In this document: positions 277-35,238 of the stretch, in pieces
Position numbering within the stretch: position 1 is the first letter of the stretch
How the letters are laid out: every line of letters starts with the position of its first letter
Virus record (IMG/VR): IMGVR_UViG_2563366823_000003
Strand: one strand, 5' to 3'
DNA length: 43,465 nucleotides
Origin: a virus
Lineage: Duplodnaviria; Heunggongvirae; Uroviricota; Caudoviricetes
The notes under the pieces: generated by a model
Told to the model about the DNA's origin: nothing
The model's database searches: none
What the model saw: the letters and a program-made list of their open reading frames with translations, nothing else
Made by a program: the position numbers and the translations under genes

Positions 277-936
277 TTATTGCAATTGCACAAGAGTCAG
301 TTCTCCCCCAAAGACAGCACCGGTATCAATATAATGCAGGTTGCCAATATCCACGCGATGGCGCAAAGGTGTATGACCAAACCAGAAATGATCAGCACCT
401 GCAATTCCCTGCCCTTTTTGGCGTTCACCTAATCGCGAGCGGCTCCACAAGACCTGATGCAAATCGACGTCCTTTTGCCATTCATAGACATCATCTGGAT
501 AATCGGCATGAGCAATAACATGTTTGCCGGTGCGACTGTGTAATTCAAGAATAAAGGGCAAATGCTGACATTTTTCCAGCGCCGTTTTCGCTTGTTTCTG
601 TTGATTATCTGCCAGCGCAATAAACCAGTCGCCGCCATTTATCAACCATAAAGACATCTGCCGGGATGCCAGCGCATCCATCGCCATCTGTTCATGATTG
701 CCTCTTACCGCACGAACCCAATGTTGTTCCAGTAACTGCAGGCAACGTAAACTTTGCGGCCCACGATCGATAACGTCTCCCACTGAGATAAGTAAATCTC
801 GCCACGGATCAAAACGACAATGCCATAATTTGCGGCGCAACTGCTCAAGACAACCGTGTATATCGCCTGAAAGCCAGATATGTCGCCATTGATGACCCGC
901 AATTCTCTGATAAACGGGCGCAGGCTGTTTCATCAA
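277..936 (-). CDS. pphA: serine/threonine protein phosphatase 1 (calcineurin-like metallophosphoesterase)
   Basis: 218-aa product with GDIHG, GDVIDRG and GNHE metallophosphatase motifs; near-identical to E. coli PphA/PrpA as recalled. Confidence 0.9.
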   Translation of the reverse strand: MMKQPAPVYQRIAGHQWRHIWLSGDIHGCLEQLRRKLWHCRFDPWRDLLISVGDVIDRGPQSLRCLQLLEQHWVRAVRGNHEQMAMDALASRQMSLWLINGGDWFIALADNQQKQAKTALEKCQHLPFILELHSRTGKHVIAHADYPDDVYEWQKDVDLHQVLWSRSRLGERQKGQGIAGADHFWFGHTPLRHRVDIGNLHYIDTGAVFGGELTLVQLQ

Positions 937-1610: not shown

Positions 1611-2156
1611 ATGAACATTAGTGAACTTAAAAACTGTATACACTATGAAGTAATAGGTTATAAACGCCCTTTCTCCTGGCGAAAAGCAATTGTTCGCGCA
1701 ATAAAACACAGAAGATTACGTTATTTATTTTGGTGGCGCATAGCAAAATATCTTTTTGATAAAGGCGGATACCGGCGAAAGGTTGCAGGAAAAATAGAAC
1801 GCTTCATTCTTGATAAATACAATGTAACCGTTCCCTTAACTGTAAATATTGGTAAAGGGTTCGACATATCTTATCTCAATGGCGTTGTTATCGGTCACAA
1901 AGTTACAATAGGTGAAAATTGTTCAATTAAGCCTGGAGTAACTATTGGACTTCGCGGTGAATTTAATGATATGGATATTGTCATAGGAAATAATGTAACC
2001 ATCGGCTGTAACGCCACCATCCTTGGTGGCAAAGTGCATATAGGGAATAATGTAAAAATAGGAGCTCATGCATTAGTACTGCATGACATTCCTGATGACT
2101 CCACATTCATTACTAAATTTCACTCTGAAATTATTTATAACTCATCTCACACATAA
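1611..2156 (+). CDS. hexapeptide-repeat (left-handed beta-helix) acyl/acetyltransferase; low-GC cargo gene
   Basis: 181 aa with repeated [LIV]G-x-x-x-x hexapeptide units (VIGHKVTIGENCSIKPGVTIG, VIGNNVTIGCNATILGGKVHIGNNVKIG); AT-rich relative to flanking phage genes. Confidence 0.75.
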   Translation: MNISELKNCIHYEVIGYKRPFSWRKAIVRAIKHRRLRYLFWWRIAKYLFDKGGYRRKVAGKIERFILDKYNVTVPLTVNIGKGFDISYLNGVVIGHKVTIGENCSIKPGVTIGLRGEFNDMDIVIGNNVTIGCNATILGGKVHIGNNVKIGAHALVLHDIPDDSTFITKFHSEIIYNSSHT

Positions 2157-2238
2157 TTCCGTTTAATCACAGCTCTGGCCATACGATATCCGGGGCTGTA
2201 TTTATATCAATCCGACTCACTAATACCCGGTATTTTTT

Positions 2239-2739
2239 CTAGGAAGATAGCATCGAGACTTCCTCATCAGTTGCCATTTCAAAATTAACAGCATCCTGCA
2301 GAATTGTTATGTTATCAGTCGCTTCCTGGATTAATCTTGCCTTTTTCTCTTCCGCCTCCCGGATCCGGAACAGTTTTTCTGCTTCTGCATCTTTCACCCA
2401 AGCTGTGCCGTTCCACTTCTGAAACTCCCCATCCGGCGACAACCAGGTGACATTTTCCGGTAATGGGCCAAGTTCAGAAATAAATAACGCGTCCCCTGAT
2501 GCCACGTCATAAACCGTTTTACCCCGATGGTCTTCAACGAGATGCCACGATGCCTCATCACTGTTGAAAACAGCCACAAAGCCAGCCGGAATATCTGGCG
2601 GTGCAATATCGGTACTGTTTGCAGGCAGACCTGTATGAGGCGGAATATATGCGTCACCTTCACCAATAAATTCATTAGTTCCGGCCAGCAGGTTATAAAT
2701 TTTTATGGTCCGTGCTTGTTCACTCATTCTGAATGCCAT
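2239..2739 (-). CDS. tfa: tail fibre assembly protein (lambda Tfa family)
   Basis: N-terminus [57 protein letters not shown] closely matches recalled lambda Tfa; ATG overlaps the stop of the upstream fibre gene. Confidence 0.85.
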
Positions 2740-3836
2740 TATGCGAGCCTCACAATATAGTTAAATGCGATGTTTTTGACGGTGTTTTCCGCGTTACCAG
2801 CAGCGTTAACGGTGATGGTGTGTCCATGTGAACCAATCGCAACAGAGTGCGTATGTGCACCAATAGCGACAGTATGTGTATGCGCCCCAGCACTTGCTGC
2901 AGTACCTGATACTGAGTGGGTATGCGCGCCAGCAGAATTCGTTGCACCTAAGTGAGTTTGAGCAGAGTTCGACGAAGCTACTCTACCGGAGCTAACGTTA
3001 GCATTATCCCCCTGAGATATCGGATGCGTATGTGCACCTGCTGAAGCTGCTGTTCCGCTAACGCTATGGGTATGCGCACCAGTGTTATTCGTAGATTTAG
3101 TTCCATAATCAAACGATGATGTGTTTTTTGTCCCTAAATCTGTATTGGAAGCACTGGCGCTGTGGGTGTGCGATTTAATGCCGTCCTGTTCCTGGCTAAG
3201 AACATCACGTCCACTTGCAGGCTTACCTTTGATTGTCCAGCCACGCATATCAGGGATCACGCCTGACGGATAAGCGGCTGCAAGTTTCGGGTATGCAGAC
3301 TTGTCAAAAGTCTGTCCCTGCATCAGAGCATAACCAGATGGAACTGTATCTGATGGCCACGGGATCGGGGCACCTACAGGAAAGGTCGAATTATTTTCCA
3401 AACCAAGATATTTAAGGACATCAGCAACAGAGCTTTTTGCCAAAATATCTCGCCCAACCTGTGTCAGGTCAGCCAAATTAGCGGTATCTTGATTGGTAAA
3501 ATACGGTAATTTGTTTTCGGATGCTGAAAGATTAGCAAGTGCGGTAAGTATGGCATTAATTCTCTGATAGTTCTTATCTAATGCAGACGACATTTTTGCG
3601 ATAAATCCGGCCTGATCGCCATCGTCCTGTACATCCAGTCCACTTTCATTTGCTGTATATTGTGCCATTGCAGATGCAATAAAGCTGGCCTGCCGAATAA
3701 CCTTATTGACTTGCGCACTGGATGCTTTCCCTGCTGTAAATCCGGATAAAAGCGCAGGTAATGCTTCCCATTCCTCCTGCGACATAACATTGGCATTCCG
3801 ATCAGTTGCAAACGCTTTAAAGTCATTTTTCGCCAT
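2739..3836 (-). CDS. side tail fibre protein with His-rich C-terminal repeats (GAHTHS x5)
   Basis: 365-aa ORF immediately upstream of tfa; repeated [15 protein letters not shown] units; start placed at ATG 3836 overlapping the upstream stop (TGATG). Confidence 0.8.
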
Positions 3837-5712: not shown

Positions 5713-6065
5713 TACGCCTCCGATGTAACAGTCGTTATTCCATAGAGAGTGTCGATTTCAGCGGAAAACATGACACGTCGGGTCGTGGTATCCACCGTCG
5801 TATTGAAAGAGAGGATTGATTTAACGCCCCGCGTTTCGAGGATGCGCTTACGGATCGCCAGGTTGTAGGTTTCCGGCTTCTGCTTACCGAGCACGGACTG
5901 GATCCACGGAGTCCCTTCGGTGGTGTCGAGAAACCATTGCCCATACCACAATTCGAATCGCGTTTTCACAGCCTGTGCTACGGCCTCAGGCGAGTTAATC
6001 AGCCAGGTGTCATCACCGCTGCCAAAGGTGTAATCGCCATCGGCGTCTTCACGTCTGTATCGCAT
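5712..6065 (-). CDS. putative baseplate protein (Mu gp46-like position)
   Basis: 117-aa ORF translationally coupled to flanking baseplate genes. Confidence 0.45.
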   Translation of the reverse strand: MRYRREDADGDYTFGSGDDTWLINSPEAVAQAVKTRFELWYGQWFLDTTEGTPWIQSVLGKQKPETYNLAIRKRILETRGVKSILSFNTTVDTTTRRVMFSAEIDTLYGITTVTSEA

Positions 6066-6817
6066 CAGTTTACCCCATCGGTATTGCTTCCACCGCGCTG
6101 AACACCACCATGAGTGTGCGTATCATCGATTGGCTTGCCGTTAGCCTTCACGCTCCCCAAAAACTCAACAGCACCAGTGATTTTTGAAGCCACACCAGAA
6201 ACCACAGACCCCACCATGCCCCCCAACCAGGTTAACAGGCCATGAATGGTTACTTTCTCAGAAAAATCAGCCAGAGGGGCAACCACATCAAGACCACCCG
6301 GAGCGACAATTTTAATTTTCCCGGTATCAGGATTAAGCTCAAAATAGGTGCTGCCATCGTCACTACGCAACTGTGTGGCACTGGTATTAATACCGCTAAT
6401 CTTCCTAGCCTGCGACTGGGGACCGACAATACAAAACGCATCCGATAAATCATGCATTCTGTCATCAACAGGCTCCTGTATCCCGCCGTTCTGCCACCAG
6501 AAATCAATACAACGATCGGCAAAAACGACAAGACACTCATCCCCAGCTTTTACCGGAAAAGTCAACGTACAGCCTCCGCCGCGCGGGAATACCACTGGCA
6601 CATCCACCAGCAATGGGTAATTTTTGGTAATGCGGTTACCGTAGTTATCCTTTTCAACCGAACGGATAGCTGGCTGCACAACCGCCGTCACCGCGTCAGG
6701 ATCGAATGACTGAATAATGCCAGGCAAGGCGACGCGGATCTGGTTCTTTGTTGTTTCCCGCTCGGACTTGAATGTTTCGGCAAGGTCACCGCTACGAGTC
6801 TGGTCTGATATGGCCAT
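6065..6817 (-). CDS. putative baseplate spike/hub protein (Mu gp45-like position)
   Basis: ORF with AGGAG 8 nt upstream of ATG 6817; the track start at 6850 is less likely. Confidence 0.45.
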   Translation of the reverse strand: MAISDQTRSGDLAETFKSERETTKNQIRVALPGIIQSFDPDAVTAVVQPAIRSVEKDNYGNRITKNYPLLVDVPVVFPRGGGCTLTFPVKAGDECLVVFADRCIDFWWQNGGIQEPVDDRMHDLSDAFCIVGPQSQARKISGINTSATQLRSDDGSTYFELNPDTGKIKIVAPGGLDVVAPLADFSEKVTIHGLLTWLGGMVGSVVSGVASKITGAVEFLGSVKANGKPIDDTHTHGGVQRGGSNTDGVN

Positions 6818-6830
6818 TTGATAAACTCCT

Positions 6831-6858
6831 GAAAACAAAAAACCCGCCAAGTGGCGGG
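6831..6858 (-). terminator. rho-independent terminator closing the inserted moron
   Basis: Perfect 7-bp stem acccgcc/ggcgggt with 4-nt loop, followed on the minus strand by TTTTTTGTTTT. Confidence 0.6.
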
Positions 6859-6878
6859 TCTACAGGAACAACTCTAAG

Positions 6879-7050
6879 TTTATTTTTTCTGTTTAAAATT
6901 GTCCAACTCAGGTTCTTTAACGCTTTCTGTCATGTAATCCAATCCATCAAAAGGTACTTCAAGCATTATACTGCTTTCATAATCAGCCATGGATTGCTCT
7001 GCTTGCGTTGGCTTACTTTGCTGTGAGTTGTCATTATTTGATGTTGTCAT
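6879..7050 (-). CDS. small acidic hypothetical protein (56 aa), distal gene of the moron
   Basis: ORF MTTSNNDNSQQSKPTQAEQSMADYESSIMLEVPFDGLDYMTESVKEPELDNFKQKK, below the track size cutoff; starts 3 nt after the upstream stop and is followed by the terminator. Confidence 0.35.
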
Positions 7051-7053
7051 CAA

Positions 7054-7608
7054 CTATGCCTTATTTATCAAAAGAAAAGTAACCGATAATATGAAAAAAC
7101 CGAAAGATAACGCAATTCCTTCAAAAAGATAACGAGCATAAACTGCCTTTTCTTTATGAAGACTTTCGATCAATTCAACAGCTTTACCATACTGAAACAT
7201 ATGGTATCTAAGCGTTTTAATTTTATCACCGTAAAGTAAAAAATCATGCTCTTCTTTTCGCTTATGAATAGGCATTTTTGGTATATCTTTCAGTCCCCAA
7301 GTACGCCATAGGAAAAAAAAGCACATAACAATACAAACAAAGCACAGATATGCACAAAGTATAGATAATGTTAAAAACCAATTACTCTTTAGCCCACTTT
7401 TGAAATCAACAGTCCCAAATACAGCCAGTAGAGCAGAGGTTTCTACAGCTAAAATAGCAAGAAGGTAGTTAACTTTGTCCTCAAGACGACGATATGTTGA
7501 TTTTGCTTCCTCATATCTATCTTTATAATATGACGAAATAAAATCAGCGCCTATAGTCTCAATTGCCTTTTGTTCTTCTGTTGTATCTATTGGCGAACGC
7601 TTGCTCAT
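7054..7608 (-). CDS. hypothetical integral membrane protein (2-3 predicted TM helices); low-GC moron
   Basis: 184 aa with hydrophobic stretches LLAILAVETSALLAVFG, FLTLSILCAYLCFVCIVMCFFFLW and IALSFGFFILSVTFLLI; markedly AT-rich compared with flanking baseplate genes. Confidence 0.6.
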   Translation of the reverse strand: MSKRSPIDTTEEQKAIETIGADFISSYYKDRYEEAKSTYRRLEDKVNYLLAILAVETSALLAVFGTVDFKSGLKSNWFLTLSILCAYLCFVCIVMCFFFLWRTWGLKDIPKMPIHKRKEEHDFLLYGDKIKTLRYHMFQYGKAVELIESLHKEKAVYARYLFEGIALSFGFFILSVTFLLINKA

Positions 7609-7615
7609 TTCTTAA

Positions 7616-7963
7616 TCAACCAACAACTTTCTTACACGGGAAAGAGCCAATAATTTTCGGAGCATCCATGCTGTTCTGCAACAACTGGACGTTCAGGAAA
7701 CGCGTTTTAGTGCCCGGTCGATGGATATACTCGAACCCATAATTGTTGCCATCTTTGGCAGGCATCAGCTCCATTTTGATCTGCATGCCTGTACCGTCTT
7801 TACCCAACATTTTTACTTTTTGGGACGTTACTGTTTCGCCATTGATTTTAAATAATGAGTCAGGGATCGCATCCATACGAAAGTTGCCGCATTGCATCGT
7901 TATGGTGTTTGCACTTACACCAACAGACACTAACGCCAGCAATGAAAATATCCATCGTTTCAT
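7616..7963 (-). CDS. hypothetical secreted/periplasmic protein (115 aa) with Sec signal peptide
   Basis: Start at ATG 7963 (GAGAGGA upstream) gives MKRWIFSLLALVSVGVSA signal peptide; two Cys in the mature part; the track's longer N-terminus is unlikely. Confidence 0.55.
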   Translation of the reverse strand: MKRWIFSLLALVSVGVSANTITMQCGNFRMDAIPDSLFKINGETVTSQKVKMLGKDGTGMQIKMELMPAKDGNNYGFEYIHRPGTKTRFLNVQLLQNSMDAPKIIGSFPCKKVVG

Positions 7964-7965
7964 TT

Positions 7966-9030
7966 CTATAATCCTCTCTGCAAAGCAGTGCTGGATGGCA
8001 TATCCTGCGCACCGCGCGCTTCGCACATCATATCCATGTACCACGCCTGGCCCCTTGTGTCGCCAGTGTACATAATCCCGCGCACAATATAAACGCCATC
8101 CGTTGCGATGCTGGCAGGCTGCGATGTGGTGCCGCTTAGCGTGATATTTCCATCCGTGTTCTGGTCGGTGATCTGACCACCAGCCATCGCAATATCGTTG
8201 TTCGACAACGCGGTACGATACACTGAAACCTGATCCAGCTGAATGAGTCCGTTAACCCGGATGTTCGGATTAATAAGCGCGCGGACGTTTACGCCGTTAC
8301 CGATAGTCTGCTGCGGCATGCCAATAAGCCCGGTAGCGCTGTTGAGCACAATCGCTTCATGAACATATTCGTTATTCGCCACCATCTGGCGCTGGCCGTC
8401 CACGAATTGCCATGTTGCGCCACATTGCCCGGCTACGTTATCCATTAGATGCCGCGTCATGCCAAAGAGTACCCGCCCCCGGGGGAATACAGTAGCAGGC
8501 ATTTCAGGCGTCAGGCCTTCGGTCGCGCCTTTGGCTTCGAAGTCTTTCATCAGCGCACGGCTCACATCAGCGACCGTGTAACCGGCAGCCAGCGTCTGTG
8601 AGGTTATACTGGTGGCAAAAGCCAGATCTGTATCGGCTGCCTGAATCAGGACGTAGGTATCAACCGGACTGTCTTTTCCTGTGACCGAGTAGCGAATTTC
8701 ACCGCTGAAAATCAGTCCGTAGTTGCGGCCATCACTCTGGCCCACGTCCGCCGCGTCAACTTCCCGCACTGTCCCGACGTCGCTTGCCGACACCTCCGGC
8801 GCGATACCGTCGTAACCCGCAATCAGACGCACTTTCGAAAACTCCTGCCCGGTGATTCGGTTCACAGTATCTGCCGAGAGGTTATAAATTTTGATAGTCC
8901 CTACCCGGGACGCGCTGCTGATGTTGAACCAGTCGATCGTAAAGGTGACTTTAAAATCACTTAGCTCAATTCCCTGACCGTTCCCGTCCACAAGCTGCAG
9001 CTCGAAATGTCTCATCCAGTTCTGTGACAT
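7966..9030 (-). CDS. putative baseplate hub protein (Mu gp44-like position)
   Basis: ORF in the tail module; ATG 9030 preceded by GGAG, immediately after the upstream stop. Confidence 0.5.
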   Translation of the reverse strand: MSQNWMRHFELQLVDGNGQGIELSDFKVTFTIDWFNISSASRVGTIKIYNLSADTVNRITGQEFSKVRLIAGYDGIAPEVSASDVGTVREVDAADVGQSDGRNYGLIFSGEIRYSVTGKDSPVDTYVLIQAADTDLAFATSITSQTLAAGYTVADVSRALMKDFEAKGATEGLTPEMPATVFPRGRVLFGMTRHLMDNVAGQCGATWQFVDGQRQMVANNEYVHEAIVLNSATGLIGMPQQTIGNGVNVRALINPNIRVNGLIQLDQVSVYRTALSNNDIAMAGGQITDQNTDGNITLSGTTSQPASIATDGVYIVRGIMYTGDTRGQAWYMDMMCEARGAQDMPSSTALQRGL

Positions 9031-24540: not shown

Positions 24541-24876
24541 TTACTCCTTATGGGCACCGAACTTGTTACCGATGACCCTCATTGCTGCACCACGAATAGC
24601 ATCAACACCAATCAGCCCCACCCCACCACCAATGGCAACAGAAAGTGATTTAGGCCATCCGACATACTCAAGCGCGGATGCAAAGGTCAGCGTCAGGGCA
24701 CCACAGAGCAAAATCTCAAGCGTTTTTCGTTTCCAGCCCCCATCACCGCCAAAATAGGCGATGCGCAAACCAGCCATAACGATCGACATAATCACTGCGC
24801 CCAGCGGAGTGTCTCCACGCCACCAGCTCTGAAACAACTCCAGCCAGTCCGGCCAGGTATTTGGGTTATGAGGCAT
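24541..24876 (-). CDS. holin
   Basis: Small membrane protein upstream of the endolysin with hydrophobic segments; two in-frame starts (24900 and 24876). Confidence 0.6.
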   Translation of the reverse strand: MPHNPNTWPDWLELFQSWWRGDTPLGAVIMSIVMAGLRIAYFGGDGGWKRKTLEILLCGALTLTFASALEYVGWPKSLSVAIGGGVGLIGVDAIRGAAMRVIGNKFGAHKE

Positions 24877-25240
24877 TTCATCATCTCTCACCTCGCACAT
24901 ATCGCGGGTGCAAATTGAGGGAATAAAAAATCCCCGAATATTCCAGGAGCGGAAACGGGGAAAGGCGTTGCACTAAATGGGCCTGTCTGCGGCCTTAAAT
25001 AAAAAACCCCGGCAAATGCCGAGGTCAGTTAATCGTTGCCGCTGTGAGTGCCGCGGCGCACTATCTCTTTATCAGGCCACTTACGCGTTAAACCGGGTGC
25101 CAACCGTAACTCAGTGATGCTTTACGCTTCCTCTCCCTCACTACGTCGCCATGGGAGCCCGACCAGATTAACGCTGTCGTCGCGTTGCCAATATTTGGCA
25201 TCCAATGCATTCTTTTTATTTAGCTATTTCATTTTTCTAT

Positions 25241-25276
25241 CCGTCAGAAACAACAAAACCCGCTCAATGGCGGGTT
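25241..25276 (-). terminator. tR'-like terminator downstream of Q
   Basis: 7-bp stem aacccgc/gcgggtt followed on the minus strand by TTTTGTTGTTTCTG, ~90 nt downstream of the Q stop. Confidence 0.5.
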
Positions 25277-25359
25277 CTGGTAAAGTTCATGCGCTTGGTT
25301 CGCCTCGCGATACAGCTTTGCGAAGCATACCGGAATTGAAGCAGTTTATGCGTAAAAAA

Positions 25360-25902
25360 TCAAGCTATTTTTTGAGCAAATGATTCTCGCATGGGAATAT
25401 ATAGGGCATACTCAGCAACAGCCAACCAATTAGCAATTCGCTTTTCGCATGTGCTAAAACACCACTCAGGATGTGCATCATTTAGCAATTCAGCCATTTT
25501 GCGCTTAGCCATCCCCCGTCCTTCATACCGTTGCCGGAGGACACTAATCAATCCAGGATGCTCTGCCAGCACCTCACTTATGACTCTATCAATACATAAC
25601 GCCTCTGCATCAGTACAATGCGCCAGCCAGGTCTTTTGCTTGCCATTGATCATCTCTCGCAAAAACGCTTCCAGCTCAGGTTTCTCTATTCCCGCTTTTT
25701 TCATCCTGCGCAGGGCTTCATTGACGGCTGTTTTCGTCAATTTTTGGGATGCCAGCAACTGGTTAAACATATTTCCCGTCTTACCGCCGCCAATATACGA
25801 CCAGCGCCCCCACATGCGCAGTTTTCCCTGAATCCAGACACTTTCCAGCGTGGTGAGACGAAGGTGTTCCCCGCTTTTGCCTGTATTTGTTGGGTAAATC
25901 AT
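25360..25902 (-). CDS. late-gene antiterminator Q
   Basis: ORF upstream of the lysis cassette; ATG 25902 with AAGGAAGG upstream and ATGA overlap with the preceding gene; family from recall. Confidence 0.6.
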   Translation of the reverse strand: MIYPTNTGKSGEHLRLTTLESVWIQGKLRMWGRWSYIGGGKTGNMFNQLLASQKLTKTAVNEALRRMKKAGIEKPELEAFLREMINGKQKTWLAHCTDAEALCIDRVISEVLAEHPGLISVLRQRYEGRGMAKRKMAELLNDAHPEWCFSTCEKRIANWLAVAEYALYIPMRESFAQKIA

Positions 25903-26189
25903 AAATAACCTTCCTTTCTCCAGATTTCTTGTGTGCGAAAAACACCTTCTGCATGCATCAGGCGTAATTCTTCTTTGGTGTAATCGCTGTTTTTTACCCG
26001 CCCGTCGATTAAATCGTGGCATGAGCTACAGGCAATCGCTGCCTGCATATCGTGTGGTTTTGTCGCTGTTCCGCACGTCCCCGCCAGCCTGTAATGCGCC
26101 AGCACAGATGTTTCGGGATTGTGATTGCAGTAGCCAGGAATTCTGACGGTGCACATCTGCCCCCGCGCCGCTTTACGTAAATCCACCAT
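25899..26189 (-). CDS. YbcO-like protein (DUF1364), putative Zn-binding nuclease
   Basis: 96 aa; MVDLRKAARG...RIPGYCNHNPETSVLAH...KPHDMQAAIACSSCHD resembles recalled DLP12 YbcO. Confidence 0.6.
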   Translation of the reverse strand: MVDLRKAARGQMCTVRIPGYCNHNPETSVLAHYRLAGTCGTATKPHDMQAAIACSSCHDLIDGRVKNSDYTKEELRLMHAEGVFRTQEIWRKEGYL

Positions 26190-27379: not shown

Positions 27380-27535
27380 TTACTCCTCAGGTTCGTAAGC
27401 TGTGAAGACAGCGACCTCCGTCTGGCCGGTTCGGATTCGTACCTCGCAGAGGTCTTTCCTCGTTACCAGTGCCGTCACTATGACGGTTAAACAGATGACG
27501 ATCAGGGCGATTAACATCGCCTTTTGCTGCTTCAT
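27380..27535 (-). CDS. hokD: Hok/Gef-family membrane toxin (type I toxin-antitoxin)
   Basis: 51 aa MKQQKAMLIALIVICLTVIVTALVTRKDLCEVRIRTGQTEVAVFTAYEPEE matches recalled HokD/RelF; hairpin-rich 3' UTR and in-frame upstream extension. Confidence 0.8.
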   Translation of the reverse strand: MKQQKAMLIALIVICLTVIVTALVTRKDLCEVRIRTGQTEVAVFTAYEPEE

Positions 27536-27677
27536 AGCCTGCTTCTCCTTGCCTTTCGGCACGTAAGAGGCTAACCTACATGTGCAAAGCATGAAATTGG
27601 CCTCAGATTAATGTTAAGCGTCTTGCCGGACGCGTAATGTTAACTGGGGCTTTTCTCTATCTGCCTTTGGTGTTCGT

Positions 27678-27717
27678 GCCCGAGGCAGATAGCCTCAAGC
27701 ACCCGCCGTGATTCTAC
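27678..27717. repeat. left copy of a ~40-bp imperfect direct repeat flanking the AT-rich cargo island
   Basis: gcccgaggcagatagcctcaagcacccgccgtgattctac versus gcctgagacagacaacctcaagcacccgcagcaattctac at 29698-29737, ~82% identity. Confidence 0.6.
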
Positions 27718-27942
27718 AAAAACATTACCCACCTTTCCAGCAATTCACAACAACTCCATGCAAATAGTAAGTAGAATAATAAGTTATTAGTATTAGCAAT
27801 TTACTTAGTTTCTAATTTGTGCCAATGATTTTCATTTTTGCATGAAAAATACCTTAACATTTTATATTTACTTACTATTTGTAAGCCCCATCAGTTCTTT
27901 CTGATGGCGGCTGGTATTTCAGTTCCAGATATAGTATATGCT

Positions 27943-28971
27943 TTACGCCTTAATAGGGTTAATCACATTTCCGCTATCCGTACCATAGTATTTTTTTGTA
28001 GTCATGCCTTGTTTATAATAATCATTTAACAGTTTGAGAAAGTTTCTTCCTTGCCTCTCATCTTCTATGACTAATTTACCATGCTCATTGGTCTTAAACT
28101 CTTCGTTCTGAAACATTTTTAACACATCATTCATAGCTTGAACATCATTCTTTTCCAGAGCCGTATGGTTACCTTTCTCAGCGATATGAGTGAGAATTTT
28201 TCTCAGTGATGGCTTATGAAGAATAGCTTGTTCAATAACATCTAAACCTTCAATAAGATCAAGTTCTTTAATTGTATTTAATGTTTTTTGTGCAGCTTCT
28301 GTAAACTCAACCTCCAAGCCTACAATAGCCTCAAAACTTTTCTTATGAAATACATAAAATTGATCTTTTATATAAATACAATCGATTTTGTCATCAAAAT
28401 TGACTGCGCTGCCATCAAATGATCTTAACTCTTTATCTGTTTTATCAAACAAAGCGAATACGCGCTGAGTCATATTTTGTGGTTCATTTGTTGTGACTTT
28501 CCCCCTGCTGATTTTTCGGAAAGAATAAGTGACGTCAGCCCCCTTTTGGACTTTAATACAATAGGCCCACAAATCATTCTGAACCTCAGCAAGAGAGGTA
28601 AGTACAACTGGTTTATCATTCTTTATATCGTTATTAATAACTTTTGAAAACGATATCGCGTTATTCATAGCATAGGCATAAATCTTATTGTCAATATCAT
28701 CATCAATAACAGTATACTTTTTCATCACAATATCATCTTTCGAAGCATGAGAAATAATCTGGTTTGATAAAGTATACTTAAAAAATTTAGCAATATCTGG
28801 AGCGATAGGAGCTTTAATGATTTTAAAATCGAATTTATCAACAACTCTTGCGGTTCTACTCATACCCGCTTTAAGATGTCTAGTAATGAAATACAACGAT
28901 ATTTTCGCCGCATCATCATCCTTAAGTTGCTCAGCATACTCTAATAATTCTTCAAGCTTTAACATTTTCAT
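27943..28971 (-). CDS. 342-aa soluble hypothetical protein; candidate defence effector (KwaB-like?)
   Basis: Very AT-rich ORF; its ATG overlaps the stop of the upstream membrane ORF (ATGA); Kiwa assignment is hypothesis only. Confidence 0.55.
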   Translation of the reverse strand: MKMLKLEELLEYAEQLKDDDAAKISLYFITRHLKAGMSRTARVVDKFDFKIIKAPIAPDIAKFFKYTLSNQIISHASKDDIVMKKYTVIDDDIDNKIYAYAMNNAISFSKVINNDIKNDKPVVLTSLAEVQNDLWAYCIKVQKGADVTYSFRKISRGKVTTNEPQNMTQRVFALFDKTDKELRSFDGSAVNFDDKIDCIYIKDQFYVFHKKSFEAIVGLEVEFTEAAQKTLNTIKELDLIEGLDVIEQAILHKPSLRKILTHIAEKGNHTALEKNDVQAMNDVLKMFQNEEFKTNEHGKLVIEDERQGRNFLKLLNDYYKQGMTTKKYYGTDSGNVINPIKA

Positions 28972-29583
28972 TCCTTATGGGATTCAGCATAAAAAAGTTT
29001 TGGGCCCACGTCCTCAACATCAAGAAGATCATCTTCCTCCAAATACTTGGATTTAGTCAAAACCATACCAGTGCGTTTTTTGTCGCTTTCTAAATCCAAA
29101 TATGTAACTTGATATAAAGTATAATTAATACTTATTGTAGGATTTATAAGTATCATGCTTGAATTAATATATATTAAAGCCGTTACCGTTAACAATATTG
29201 CTATAGGTATAACATTAGTTAAATGTGGATAGGTCCTGAAATACAAACGGAATTATATATGTAAAAAGATAGCTTATTGATTCATTGTTTTTATTTTCAA
29301 TATCTATAACTCTTACAGTTCTACCACTAGTGGCGCATCGACGTTTTATATTTTTTAAAAAAATTGTTAATCCTACAATACCAAATAATGATAATACACC
29401 AATGACACTGACCGCGCCAAAGTATTTAAAGAAAATAGTTAATGATTCAACACTTATACCTTTCCAATTTAAATAGCTTCTATAAGTATACAATTGCACA
29501 AAACACATGATAAAGAATAGGGGAAGGTATGACACTATAAATAGCGAAACTCTAGCACCTAAATGTAGTTTATTTACTCTCAT
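28968..29583 (-). CDS. multi-pass membrane protein (~205 aa, 4 TM) apparently split by a frameshift; KwaA-like?
   Basis: Two overlapping ORFs (29215-29583 and 28968-29252) each with two hydrophobic helices; second frame has no ATG at its head (TTG). Confidence 0.45.
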
Positions 29584-29697
29584 AACTACCCCACAGCCTA
29601 CACGTCTAGTATTTTATGTTATTTCGAATAATTATGCATCAGATTACCATCCTACAATTGTGCATAAAACGAGCATTTTGCTGATTTTTCTGCGGAT

Positions 29698-34060: not shown

Positions 34061-34483
34061 TCAATGCACTACGACAGAATCGCCGGGCGACCCACCACCG
34101 CTGAAATGTGCTTTCCGGTAAACGGCCTGGACTGCATCATCATGCGCATCAATTGCCGTACTCAATGCTTCCTGCGCCGCCAGTAATGCACGGCGTTCCA
34201 GGGTATCGAAGATACAGAGTCGGTGACGCAGCTCGCGCGGAAGAATTGCCAGAACCGCAGGGATCAGTTTCTGAATTTTTTCCCTTTGCGCTTTCGTTTC
34301 ACCTTTCAACCAACGGTGATAGATATTCTGCTGATTGTTCCAGTCCTTGCCTGGTACAAGGGGCAATTCGCCGCCCCCCTGGCGCAGATATTCTTCAGTA
34401 ATTGCGTTAGCGACCCACGCCTGCCCTTTTTCGGCTGCCAGGGCCAACAACACTGATTCGATATGCTCATGCCTGATTTTCAT
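34061..34483 (-). CDS. YdaT-like protein (CII-position regulator)
   Basis: 140-aa ORF immediately downstream of the cro-like gene, same size and position as Rac ydaT (recalled). Confidence 0.5.
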   Translation of the reverse strand: MKIRHEHIESVLLALAAEKGQAWVANAITEEYLRQGGGELPLVPGKDWNNQQNIYHRWLKGETKAQREKIQKLIPAVLAILPRELRHRLCIFDTLERRALLAAQEALSTAIDAHDDAVQAVYRKAHFSGGGSPGDSVVVH

Positions 34484-34818: not shown

Positions 34819-35238
34819 ATGGAAAAAGAAAACGAAAAAATTGCCGCTAGTAGGCTCAATGACAAAATTGCAATGCGTCTTAAAGAGCGCAGGCAGAAGC
34901 TTGGTTTATCTCAAGGAAAACTTGCTGAAATCTGCGGATGGACGCAATCGCGTATAGGTAACTATGAGGCGGGCAGCAGAAATGTTGGAGTGCATGACGC
35001 TGTCGTATTGGGAAAGGCTCTTGGCATATCTCCTCCTGAGCTCCTCTTTGGAGAACAGGAATCTTCTGAATTGTGGTTAAATGAATCCCAACGAAAACTT
35101 CTTGAGTTGTTTAACCAGCTACCGGGCTCAGAACAACAACGAATGATTGAGCTATTTGAAGTCCGGCTAAAAGAAATCGATGAGTATGTAGAAAAATATT
35201 TGAGAGGCAGGCTTAAAGATAATCCCCCACCGGAGTAA
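34819..35238 (+). CDS. prophage repressor, RacR-like (XRE-family HTH)
   Basis: 139 aa with HTH LGLSQGKLAEICGWTQSRIGNYE; no peptidase domain; divergent from cro-like gene. Confidence 0.7.
   Translation: MEKENEKIAASRLNDKIAMRLKERRQKLGLSQGKLAEICGWTQSRIGNYEAGSRNVGVHDAVVLGKALGISPPELLFGEQESSELWLNESQRKLLELFNQLPGSEQQRMIELFEVRLKEIDEYVEKYLRGRLKDNPPPE

Follow-up and report, generated by a model that had tools for sequence, protein, structure and literature searches.

A cargo slot and a conserved terminator between the baseplate hub and spike genes of a SEN34-like lambdoid prophage

Results

Layout of the hub-to-spike interval

The window considered here is the whole 43,465-nucleotide stretch of IMG/VR virus record IMGVR_UViG_2563366823_000003, a prophage that combines a contractile tail with lambdoid regulation (a tyrosine integrase, a RecE/RecT-type early region, Q and a lambda-type holin). 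Its nearest sequenced phages are E. coli vB_EcoM-606R2 and its kin, Yersinia YP3, Salmonella SEN34 (genus Brunovirus) and Klebsiella Mulock. Our subject is the interval between the baseplate hub gene and the membrane-puncturing spike gene, in which three small genes are followed by a strong hairpin; an earlier note on this DNA had taken the three for one inserted unit. We find that the interval consists of three separable elements: a near-constant gene for an exported protein, a slot into which different genes are swapped, and a conserved terminator. In the window, the slot holds the genes of a 184-amino-acid (aa) membrane protein and of a 56-aa partner, which we call the cassette. The features of the interval are as follows:

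7966..9030, minus strand: baseplate hub gene, left flank (phrog_196, E = 5e-89; weak match to PF22759 E217_GP41)
7616..7963, minus strand: gene of the exported 115-aa protein, position 1 (phrog_3443, E = 1.4e-51)
7054..7608, minus strand: cargo gene 1, 184-aa inner-membrane protein (phrog_18554, E = 1e-129)
6880..7050, minus strand: cargo gene 2, 56-aa hydrophilic partner (phrog_18231, E = 6.5e-44)
6831..6861, minus strand: intrinsic terminator (stem-loop 6861..6840 followed by a U-run)
6065..6817, minus strand: gene of the gpV-type membrane-puncturing spike, right flank (PF18352, E = 2.4e-44; PF18946 Apex)

The three open reading frames (ORFs) of 115, 184 and 56 aa are found on the minus strand where they had been placed from the sequence alone, and they are tightly packed, with intergenic gaps of 2, 7 and 3 nucleotides and with the Shine-Dalgarno sequence of the 115-aa gene inside the hub gene. 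Searches of the three proteins against Pfam and NCBIfam gave zero matches. The flanks had been described as gp44-like and gp45-like, and the hub and spike are indeed the functional counterparts of Mu gp44 and gp45. RefSeq names the spike a 'membrane-puncturing spike protein', and the hub keeps 60-100% amino acid identity across all related loci.

The strong AT-richness attributed to the membrane gene is confirmed: its G+C fraction (GC) is 0.339, that of the 56-aa gene 0.357 and that of the 115-aa gene 0.434, compared with 0.509 +/- 0.039 in 750-bp windows of the late region. Taken together, the two cassette genes have a GC of 0.342 (z = -4.3), the sole such dip of the late operon, so that the cassette has the deviant base composition of a moron. 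These two genes are accessory cargo in a structural operon.

The terminator

The terminator hairpin has a 9-bp stem with six G-C pairs, a loop of 4 and the tail TTTGTTTTCA. The 62-nucleotide intergenic RNA that holds it has a folding energy of -21.3 kcal/mol (z = -3.5), and it is the top-scoring terminator-like site on the minus strand between 2000 and 22000, a late region of 20 kb. Directly 3' of it stand the ribosome-binding site and ATG of the spike gene. An Rfam scan of positions 6000-9000 returned sub-threshold matches only, and these fell on the terminator hairpin.

In every relative, irrespective of its cargo, the spike gene is preceded by the hairpin core ACCCGC-loop-GCGGGU, the U-run and the ribosome-binding site of the spike; the loop and the stem bases flanking the core differ from relative to relative. 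The terminator is retained even in Serratia and at locus L040, where the hubs are only ~60% identical. A factor-independent terminator downstream, which is a further mark of a moron, is therefore present and is common to all cargos. The hairpin and U-run that were said to close the three genes are real, and are the strongest of the late region, but they do not belong to the insert. The terminator is the fixed right border of the cargo slot, and not something that the insert brought with it.

A slot for exchangeable cargo

The gene order in every relative examined is plug, hub, small exported protein, one or two variable genes, terminator and spike. We screened 5426 complete E. coli genomes and found this tail module in 352; the cassette is present in 21 of these and absent from the other 331. 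The 21 genomes share the three-gene arrangement of the window at 99-100% identity. In 18 further genomes, the 115-aa allele is 95-97% identical and the sequences then diverge exactly at its stop codon (for example at L003), a position that forms the exact left border of the slot.

At least 10 unrelated cargo sets, including the present pair, occur among 14 slot variants. The alternatives comprise DUF2335 and DUF4282 membrane proteins, two other single-pass proteins (in SEN34 and Mulock), a YafO toxin with a 190-aa partner, two types of gene pair ending in a weakly HEPN-like protein, and three further unrelated proteins; half of the alternative cargos are small membrane proteins. PADLOC recognised a defence system in none of the sampled slot cargos. 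No empty site was found among the relatives examined, each of which carries another cargo.

The elements of the interval also differ in their histories. At L031, the cassette has 99-100% protein identity, with 66% for the secreted protein and 68% for the spike. The reverse is seen at L010, L012 and L039, where the secreted protein is 94% identical and the cassette 53%/41%, and at L034 to L038 the hub and spike reach 96-97%, the secreted protein 67% and the cassette 52%. These mosaic loci show independent recombination of the secreted-protein gene, the cassette and the structural flanks. Of the 'three inserted ORFs' of the earlier note, the 184-aa and 56-aa genes are thus variable, but a homologue of the 115-aa protein occupies the same position, after the hub, in nearly all relatives examined. 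The suggestion that the locus belongs to the class of lysogenic-conversion or exclusion cargo fares similarly: the cassette does sit in a true variability hotspot with toxin-like and membrane cargos, but the three genes are not one unit. We did not find a description of this hub-to-spike hotspot in the searchable literature.

A variant of the cassette lies beside pncB in Salmonella (L010, L012), in a degraded SEN34-like remnant that keeps baseplate genes, tail-fibre genes and SopE. The Salmonella cassette-variant protein is listed in 1249 blocks of an assembly collection, and is accordingly very common in Salmonella.

Promoters

Neither a consensus scan nor a weight-matrix scan found a promoter-like site above background 5' of any of the three genes; both are consensus-based, and a weak or atypical promoter within the upstream coding sequence would escape them. 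By these scans, the cassette does not have the promoter of its own that marks a moron, and, with gaps of only a few nucleotides between the genes, the 'autonomous unit' that had been proposed finds no support. Other cargos in the slot are preceded by AT-rich leaders of 136-325 bp with promoter-like sites, such as TTGACT-18-TAAAAT at L007. The slot as a whole therefore follows the promoter-gene-terminator logic of morons. Expression of the present cassette in a lysogen is uncertain and finds no support in its sequence.

The 184-aa membrane protein and its relation to PycTM

The 184-aa protein has three hydrophobic spans (residues 46-69, 75-106 and 160-184), in agreement with its earlier description as a membrane protein. 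Its AlphaFold2 model (predicted local distance difference test, pLDDT, 79) places helices at 9-66, 77-104, 118-126 and 129-183. The N-terminal cytoplasmic helix carries the invariant residues Y27, R31, Y32, E34, Y39, R41-L-E-D-K45 and N47 (Y..RY.E...Y.RLEDK.N), and is followed by two transmembrane (TM) segments, a turn in which P110, M112 and P113 are invariant, a helical stretch that is basic and cytoplasmic, and the third TM segment.

The close family comprises 22 clusters from Escherichia, Salmonella, Klebsiella and Serratia, and occupies the same slot in every locus examined. No sequenced phage isolate in the phage collection has the 184-aa gene, and a search of species-representative genomes with the close-family alignment found nothing. 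A look-up of cluster names returned 'hypothetical protein' only, and the family profile gave nothing meaningful, and no solved structure, against the PDB sequences. A profile search for distant relatives among 1.8 billion representatives recovered 81, eight of them below 1e-10, and 75 were aligned.

The family shows a remote resemblance to PycTM, a pore-forming effector that is reportedly, after Tal et al. 2021, the transmembrane effector of Pycsar. Of its profiles (Pfam PF18967; PADLOC PDLC02363-5), the PADLOC models gave weak and recurrent matches. The window protein itself matches PDLC02365, a model of 165 positions, with E = 9e-4; in the close family, 11/18 and 10/18 members match two of the PycTM models (best 1.6e-5), and among the 75 distant relatives 21, 13 and 12 match PADLOC's three models (best 1e-8). 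A few distant relatives match CBASS 2TM, CARF-TM or SLATT effectors. With 184 aa and three spans, the protein is also a small multi-pass membrane protein, as a PycTM would be. We found no pyrimidine cyclase (PycC) in the slot of the 21 close-family loci nor beside 10 distant relatives. The 184-aa protein thus resembles PycTM weakly but reproducibly, and is probably a remote, cyclase-less relative of it and not a member of Pycsar. A precomputed PF18967 label on four Salmonella members was considered as proof of membership and dropped, as current Pfam does not reproduce it. In the literature, PycTM is described as disrupting membrane integrity (PMC11224242), and a preprint on phages of ammonia oxidisers reports a complete Pycsar system, not orphan effectors.

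The distant relatives are found in mobile or defence-like contexts: beside TnsBCD of a Tn7-like transposon, in islands with insertion sequences (IS) and integrases, in a phage and toxin-antitoxin region, and beside a methyltransferase. In Methanobrevibacter oralis and in metagenomes (L050-L052, 5001-5528), an archaeal provirus has a homologue without a small partner between its portal/MuF and major capsid genes. Members of the membrane-protein family thus turn up repeatedly as inserts among the structural genes of viruses, across domains. Some copies of the membrane gene are truncated or frameshifted, as in E. coli strain 2000-3039 (H31) and in the proteins P0007, P0018, P0022 and P0145.

The 56-aa partner

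The 56-aa protein, described earlier as acidic, has 11 acidic and 5 basic residues, which bears the description out; besides an acidic body it has the motif YE..IM..VPF.GL..MTES, and its tail is rich in Lys. The ORF begins 3 nucleotides past the stop of the membrane gene. The gene is annotated in RefSeq, and substitutions increase from codon position 2 to 1 to 3 (10/8/25 at positions 1, 2 and 3 in the closest pair). Homologues follow the membrane gene in Salmonella (36-41% identity), in Serratia and at L040. All of this marks the 56-aa ORF as a real gene.

The membrane gene and the small ORF occur together in the slot at 21/21 close-family loci (by tblastn in 17; the ORF was read directly in Serratia and at L040). 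Further away, a hydrophilic ORF of 34-53 aa abuts or overlaps the stop of the membrane gene in 6/8 unfused distant relatives with readable DNA. In ~10/75 relatives the membrane protein itself has a hydrophilic C-terminal extension of 46-78 aa, in several cases with an internal Met, and no small ORF abuts the gene in the two fused relatives checked at the DNA level. A phi-[T/L]-E-S-[Y/F] motif (MTESV, MTESF, CTESY, VTESY, CLESF, ALESY) recurs in the free partners and in several fused tails, and a Lys/Arg-rich stretch closes most of these sequences. The membrane protein and its small partner are thus conserved as a unit that is occasionally fused.

In the window, the membrane gene and the small ORF share a reading frame and are separated by a single TAG, followed by TTG ATG (7054-7056 and 7051-7053). 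Read-through of this stop would give a 242-aa fusion, and this hypothetical product resembles the natural fusions of the distant relatives. Stop-codon read-through as a means of joining the cargo proteins was dropped, since the frame relation differs in Salmonella, in Serratia and in distant relatives.

The exported protein at position 1

The 115-aa protein has a predicted signal peptide (MKRWIFSLLALVSVGVSA, with N as the next residue), in line with its earlier description as secreted, and matches phrog_3443 over residues 1-114 of 115, that is, over its full length. RefSeq names a near-identical protein at the same locus 'STY1065/STY2022 family phage-derived protein', and the local NCBIfam library gave no match for the 115-aa protein. 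The STY1065/STY2022 family comprises 386 clusters across Enterobacterales and has two invariant cysteines. The predicted structure is a small beta-barrel (pLDDT 83). From these features, the protein is predicted to be an exported, disulfide-bonded periplasmic beta-barrel, an accessory factor that lies outside the variable cargo. When position 1 is occupied by something else, the replacement is always an unrelated exported protein: a signal-peptide protein at L007, and a lipoprotein with an LSSC lipobox in Serratia (L014). In SEN34 (L044, NC_028699), the STY1065-family gene at 2492-2835 is annotated as 77 aa, and the full-length ORF with its signal peptide is intact.

A Foldseek search of the barrel model against BFVD gave one unnamed match (E = 4.5e-4, TM-score 0.35) and none else below E = 0.02. 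The family profile found nothing meaningful among the PDB sequences, the PliC/MliC motifs are absent from the protein, and no relevant paper was found in the literature on STY1065, STY2022 and 8xMP. The tape measure of the phage has an SLT domain (PF01464, detected on a 669-aa homologue), and by analogy a Spackle-like role of the 115-aa protein is conceivable, an idea tempered by the generic nature of the fold match and by the lack of co-variation with tail proteins. A role as structural partner of the hub or spike was considered and dropped for the same lack of co-variation. The earlier note had named homology to conserved virion components as a point against its idea. The 115-aa protein is indeed conserved across the phage group, but its signal peptide, its two invariant cysteines, the absence of co-variation with hub and spike and its unrelated exported replacements make a virion role unlikely.

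The phage and its late region

The tail cluster had been called Mu-like. We found no Mu-type organisation (transposase, Mor/C) in the window; its regulation is lambdoid and its relatives are of the SEN34 type. SEN34 itself combines lambda-like regulation with the morphology of a myovirus (PMC5261728). The phage of the window is a SEN34-like lambdoid myovirus with a tail module of the SEN34/Brunovirus type and Q-dependent late transcription. The features on which this regulation would depend are:

25360..26022, minus strand: candidate Q-type antiterminator (PF06576 DUF1133, E = 2e-108; PF06530 Phage_antitermQ, 26.2 bits with a cut-off of 26)
25425..25396, minus strand: pR'-like promoter, between Q and the holin gene
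25279..25254 and 25026..25005, minus strand: two strong tR'-like terminator hairpins, between Q and the holin gene
24541..24900: lambda-type holin (PF05106)

In the prophage of a relative, an 'antiterminator Q family protein' is annotated at the place that matches the Q candidate of the window. The holin and all lysis and structural genes lie on the minus strand downstream of Q, which gives the arrangement of a Q-dependent lambdoid late operon: Q, then promoter and terminators, then lysis and structural genes, all on one strand. The holin/endolysin region is complete. An efficient terminator in front of an essential gene is readily understood if Q antiterminates late transcription, as lambda Q and the pR'/tR' layout would suggest. 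The stem of the first tR'-like hairpin (25254-25279; ACCCGCC ... GCGGGT) is nearly identical to that of the slot terminator (6840-6861).

Other parts of the window also hold AT-rich or accessory genes. A Kiwa defence system is encoded at 27943-29583 on the minus strand, within an AT-rich island of about 27450-29600 whose GC of ~0.30 is the minimum of the window. KwaB is intact (27943..28971, PADLOC E = 1.5e-159), and KwaA is broken into two ORFs: 29215..29583 covers model positions 2-122 and 28968..29246 covers positions 116-204, pointing to a frameshift near 29215-29246. Past the tail-fibre genes there is a third AT-rich island, at about 850-1700, and the ORF 277..936 (minus strand) encodes a calcineurin-like phosphoesterase (PF00149, E = 1e-14). 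In the immunity region, a YdaT_toxin-domain ORF (34061-34483, minus strand) and a helix-turn-helix, repressor-like ORF (34819-35238, plus strand) are divergent.

Discussion

A possible function of the cassette

From lambda biology, we would expect that during lytic growth Q-modified RNA polymerase starting at pR' passes both tR' and the slot terminator, so that the three genes would be made together with the tail genes. In the lysogen, where Q is absent, the terminator would keep transcripts that start within the cargo out of the spike and baseplate genes. The 184-aa protein may be an inner-membrane effector of the same broad stock as PycTM, with no cyclase partner. The small protein would be translationally coupled to it and could hold or tune it through the conserved cytoplasmic helices. 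When another phage infects, the membrane protein would then perturb the inner membrane and exclude the newcomer, either by abortive infection or by a block of entry, and the exported protein at position 1 would be a separate accessory factor in the periplasm. A function of the cassette in phage exclusion is our tentative best guess. The explanation as a whole, from the anatomy of the slot through read-through and insulation to a cyclase-independent membrane effector with a small regulator, seems to us plausible, if a little short of probable.

Several observations weigh against it. Because the cassette has no detected promoter and is tightly packed in the late operon, it may be expressed only late in lytic growth, which would fit a defence of the lysogen poorly. 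The link to PycTM is remote: current Pfam PF18967 matches no member of the family, and the profile searches recovered no annotated Pycsar effector. The partner is not always acidic and is absent from the Zobellella and Methanobrevibacter copies. There is also a conflict of topology. The 184-aa protein is predicted to have its N-terminus inside, three TM segments and a periplasmic C-terminus, and the free partner has no signal peptide; it is nonetheless fused to that very C-terminus in ~13% of relatives (P0147, P0155, P0162, P0164, P0186, P0196, P0201, P0204 and P0219). Finally, the truncated copies of the membrane gene could reflect counter-selection of a toxic product or mere decay of prophages.

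Alternative explanations

The cassette could also act in a non-lethal exclusion at the envelope, the membrane protein and its partner blocking genome entry at the inner membrane in the manner of T4 Imm or HK97 gp15, and the barrel protein acting like T4 Sp, for example by inhibiting the lytic transglycosylase of an incoming tape measure or by masking a receptor. This would account for the fact that all occupants of position 1 are exported, for the SLT domain in the phage's own tape measure and for the small membrane proteins that make up one half of the other cargos; genes expressed in the late operon would shield the infected cell from further injection, and HK97 gp15 (Cumby 2012, cited in PMC10884400) is a precedent for a tail-operon moron with such a role. 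We nevertheless think it unlikely, as relatives of the membrane protein are also encoded by non-phage elements and by an archaeal provirus, which argues for a more general function, no co-variation links the secreted protein to spike or hub, and no sequence similarity to Imm, Sp or gp15 was found. That the genes are ordinary late genes of the lytic cycle, with a role in assembly as a chaperone, in the timing of lysis or in conditioning the membrane, is quite improbable in our judgement. They certainly share a transcript with the tail genes, given that no promoter was found, that the gaps measure 2, 7 and 3 nucleotides and that the Shine-Dalgarno sequence of the 115-aa gene falls within the hub gene. 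Nearly all relatives retain the 115-aa family, and the archaeal homologue of the membrane protein also stands within a structural module. The cassette is, however, present in only 21/352 E. coli genomes with the module and replaced by unrelated genes elsewhere, and so is dispensable for virion production; a complete holin/endolysin region is already there, exported proteins cannot enter virions that are assembled in the cytoplasm, and position 1 itself is swapped for unrelated exported proteins at L007 and L014.

Addiction would be a different way to read the pair, as a membrane toxin with a labile small antitoxin that stabilises the prophage or is simply selfish and plays no anti-phage role. 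Two translationally coupled genes, one for a membrane protein and one for a small hydrophilic product, would suit such a module, as would the YafO and HEPN-like pairs in the same slot, the spread of the family on transposons and IS-rich islands, and the truncated, toxin-like copies. We consider it very improbable: the supposed antitoxin is fused to the supposed toxin in ~13% of relatives, which is hard to square with differential stability, it is absent in some lineages, and it matches no Pfam family, with no DNA-binding domain detected that could serve autoregulation. Many toxin-antitoxin modules in prophage hotspots act in defence, moreover, so that this explanation overlaps with the exclusion effector proposed above. 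Least credible of all, and in our eyes hardly tenable, is the model of the earlier note, a single co-adapted and autonomously transcribed three-gene moron that arrived with its own terminator. The ORFs are contiguous and co-oriented, their GC is below that of the flanks, a strong terminator stands at their end and the arrangement recurs at 99-100% identity in 21 E. coli genomes. Yet the terminator is common to all cargos and relatives, no promoter was found, the 115-aa allele occurs with other cargos (L003; L010/L012/L039), and at L031 the cassette is found with a different 115-aa allele.

Significance

A bolder extension of the exclusion effector would make the pair a new immune or toxin module, complete in itself and independent of any cyclase. 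It would form a sister branch of the Pycsar TM effectors in which the small partner, sometimes fused, replaces the nucleotide signal, and would travel as swap-in cargo on mobile elements that range from enterobacterial prophage tail operons and Tn7-like transposons to an archaeal provirus. We put this forward as a tentative idea, more doubtful than not. If it is true, the stretch from hub to spike in SEN34-like phages would be a hotspot for such modules that had so far escaped description, insulated by a terminator and lying beside a second accessory position for exported proteins.

SEN34-like prophages are common in pathogenic E. coli (enterohaemorrhagic O103, O45 and O55:H7; enterotoxigenic H10407) and in Salmonella, where they carry SopE. 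Exact slot borders would permit a systematic harvest of candidate exclusion and defence genes, as has been the case for P2/P4 hotspots. With this pair, one could study the control of PycTM-like effectors in the absence of a cyclic-nucleotide signal, and the conserved terminator would be a clean natural example of how essential tail genes are insulated, at the level of transcription, from the cargo next to them. The exported barrel protein is near-universal among the relatives examined.

Comparison with known systems

The 184-aa protein shares with PycTM a similar size (~165-185 aa), the form of a multi-helix membrane protein and the weak but reproducible profile matches. It differs in having no adjoining cyclase in the copies examined, in being paired with or fused to a small hydrophilic protein, and in the lack of a current PF18967 match. 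T4 Imm and Sp are likewise a phage inner-membrane protein and a small periplasmic protein; in contrast to these and to PliC/MliC, the proteins of the window have no sequence similarity to them, their two genes assort independently, and they belong to a late operon and not to an early one.

The definition of a moron reportedly goes back to Juhala et al. 2000, from HK97 and HK022. Morons such as HK97 gp15 (in the tail operon), lambda bor and lom, and JBD26 Tab (in the late operon) are likewise genes of deviant GC that lie between conserved late genes and have an intrinsic terminator downstream. Polymerase modified by Q should disregard that terminator, as we propose here, and the other cargos of the slot have promoter-like leaders. 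The present cassette differs in that it has no promoter of its own, that the terminator is fixed to the slot and not borne by the insert, and that no empty-site relative was found. HK97 gp15 and Tab are given as examples of morons in PMC10884400.

The hotspots of P2-like phages (old/tin, Z/fun) and of P4 are accessory and defence loci (Rousset et al. 2022, PMC9122126; iLund4u preprint, 10.1101/2024.10.15.618418). They have in common with the present slot a fixed position between structural genes, in which unrelated cargos of one or two genes are swapped among near-identical prophages, and in both the cargos include toxin-like and membrane proteins. The slot described here differs from them in its lineage (SEN34/Brunovirus-type), in its position (from hub to spike) and in that no sampled cargo was recognised by PADLOC. 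Set beside these systems, what had been noticed in the window is real but was mis-parsed: it is a variant of the hotspot and of the moron, with a candidate PycTM-like two-gene membrane module, in a slot whose borders are exactly defined.

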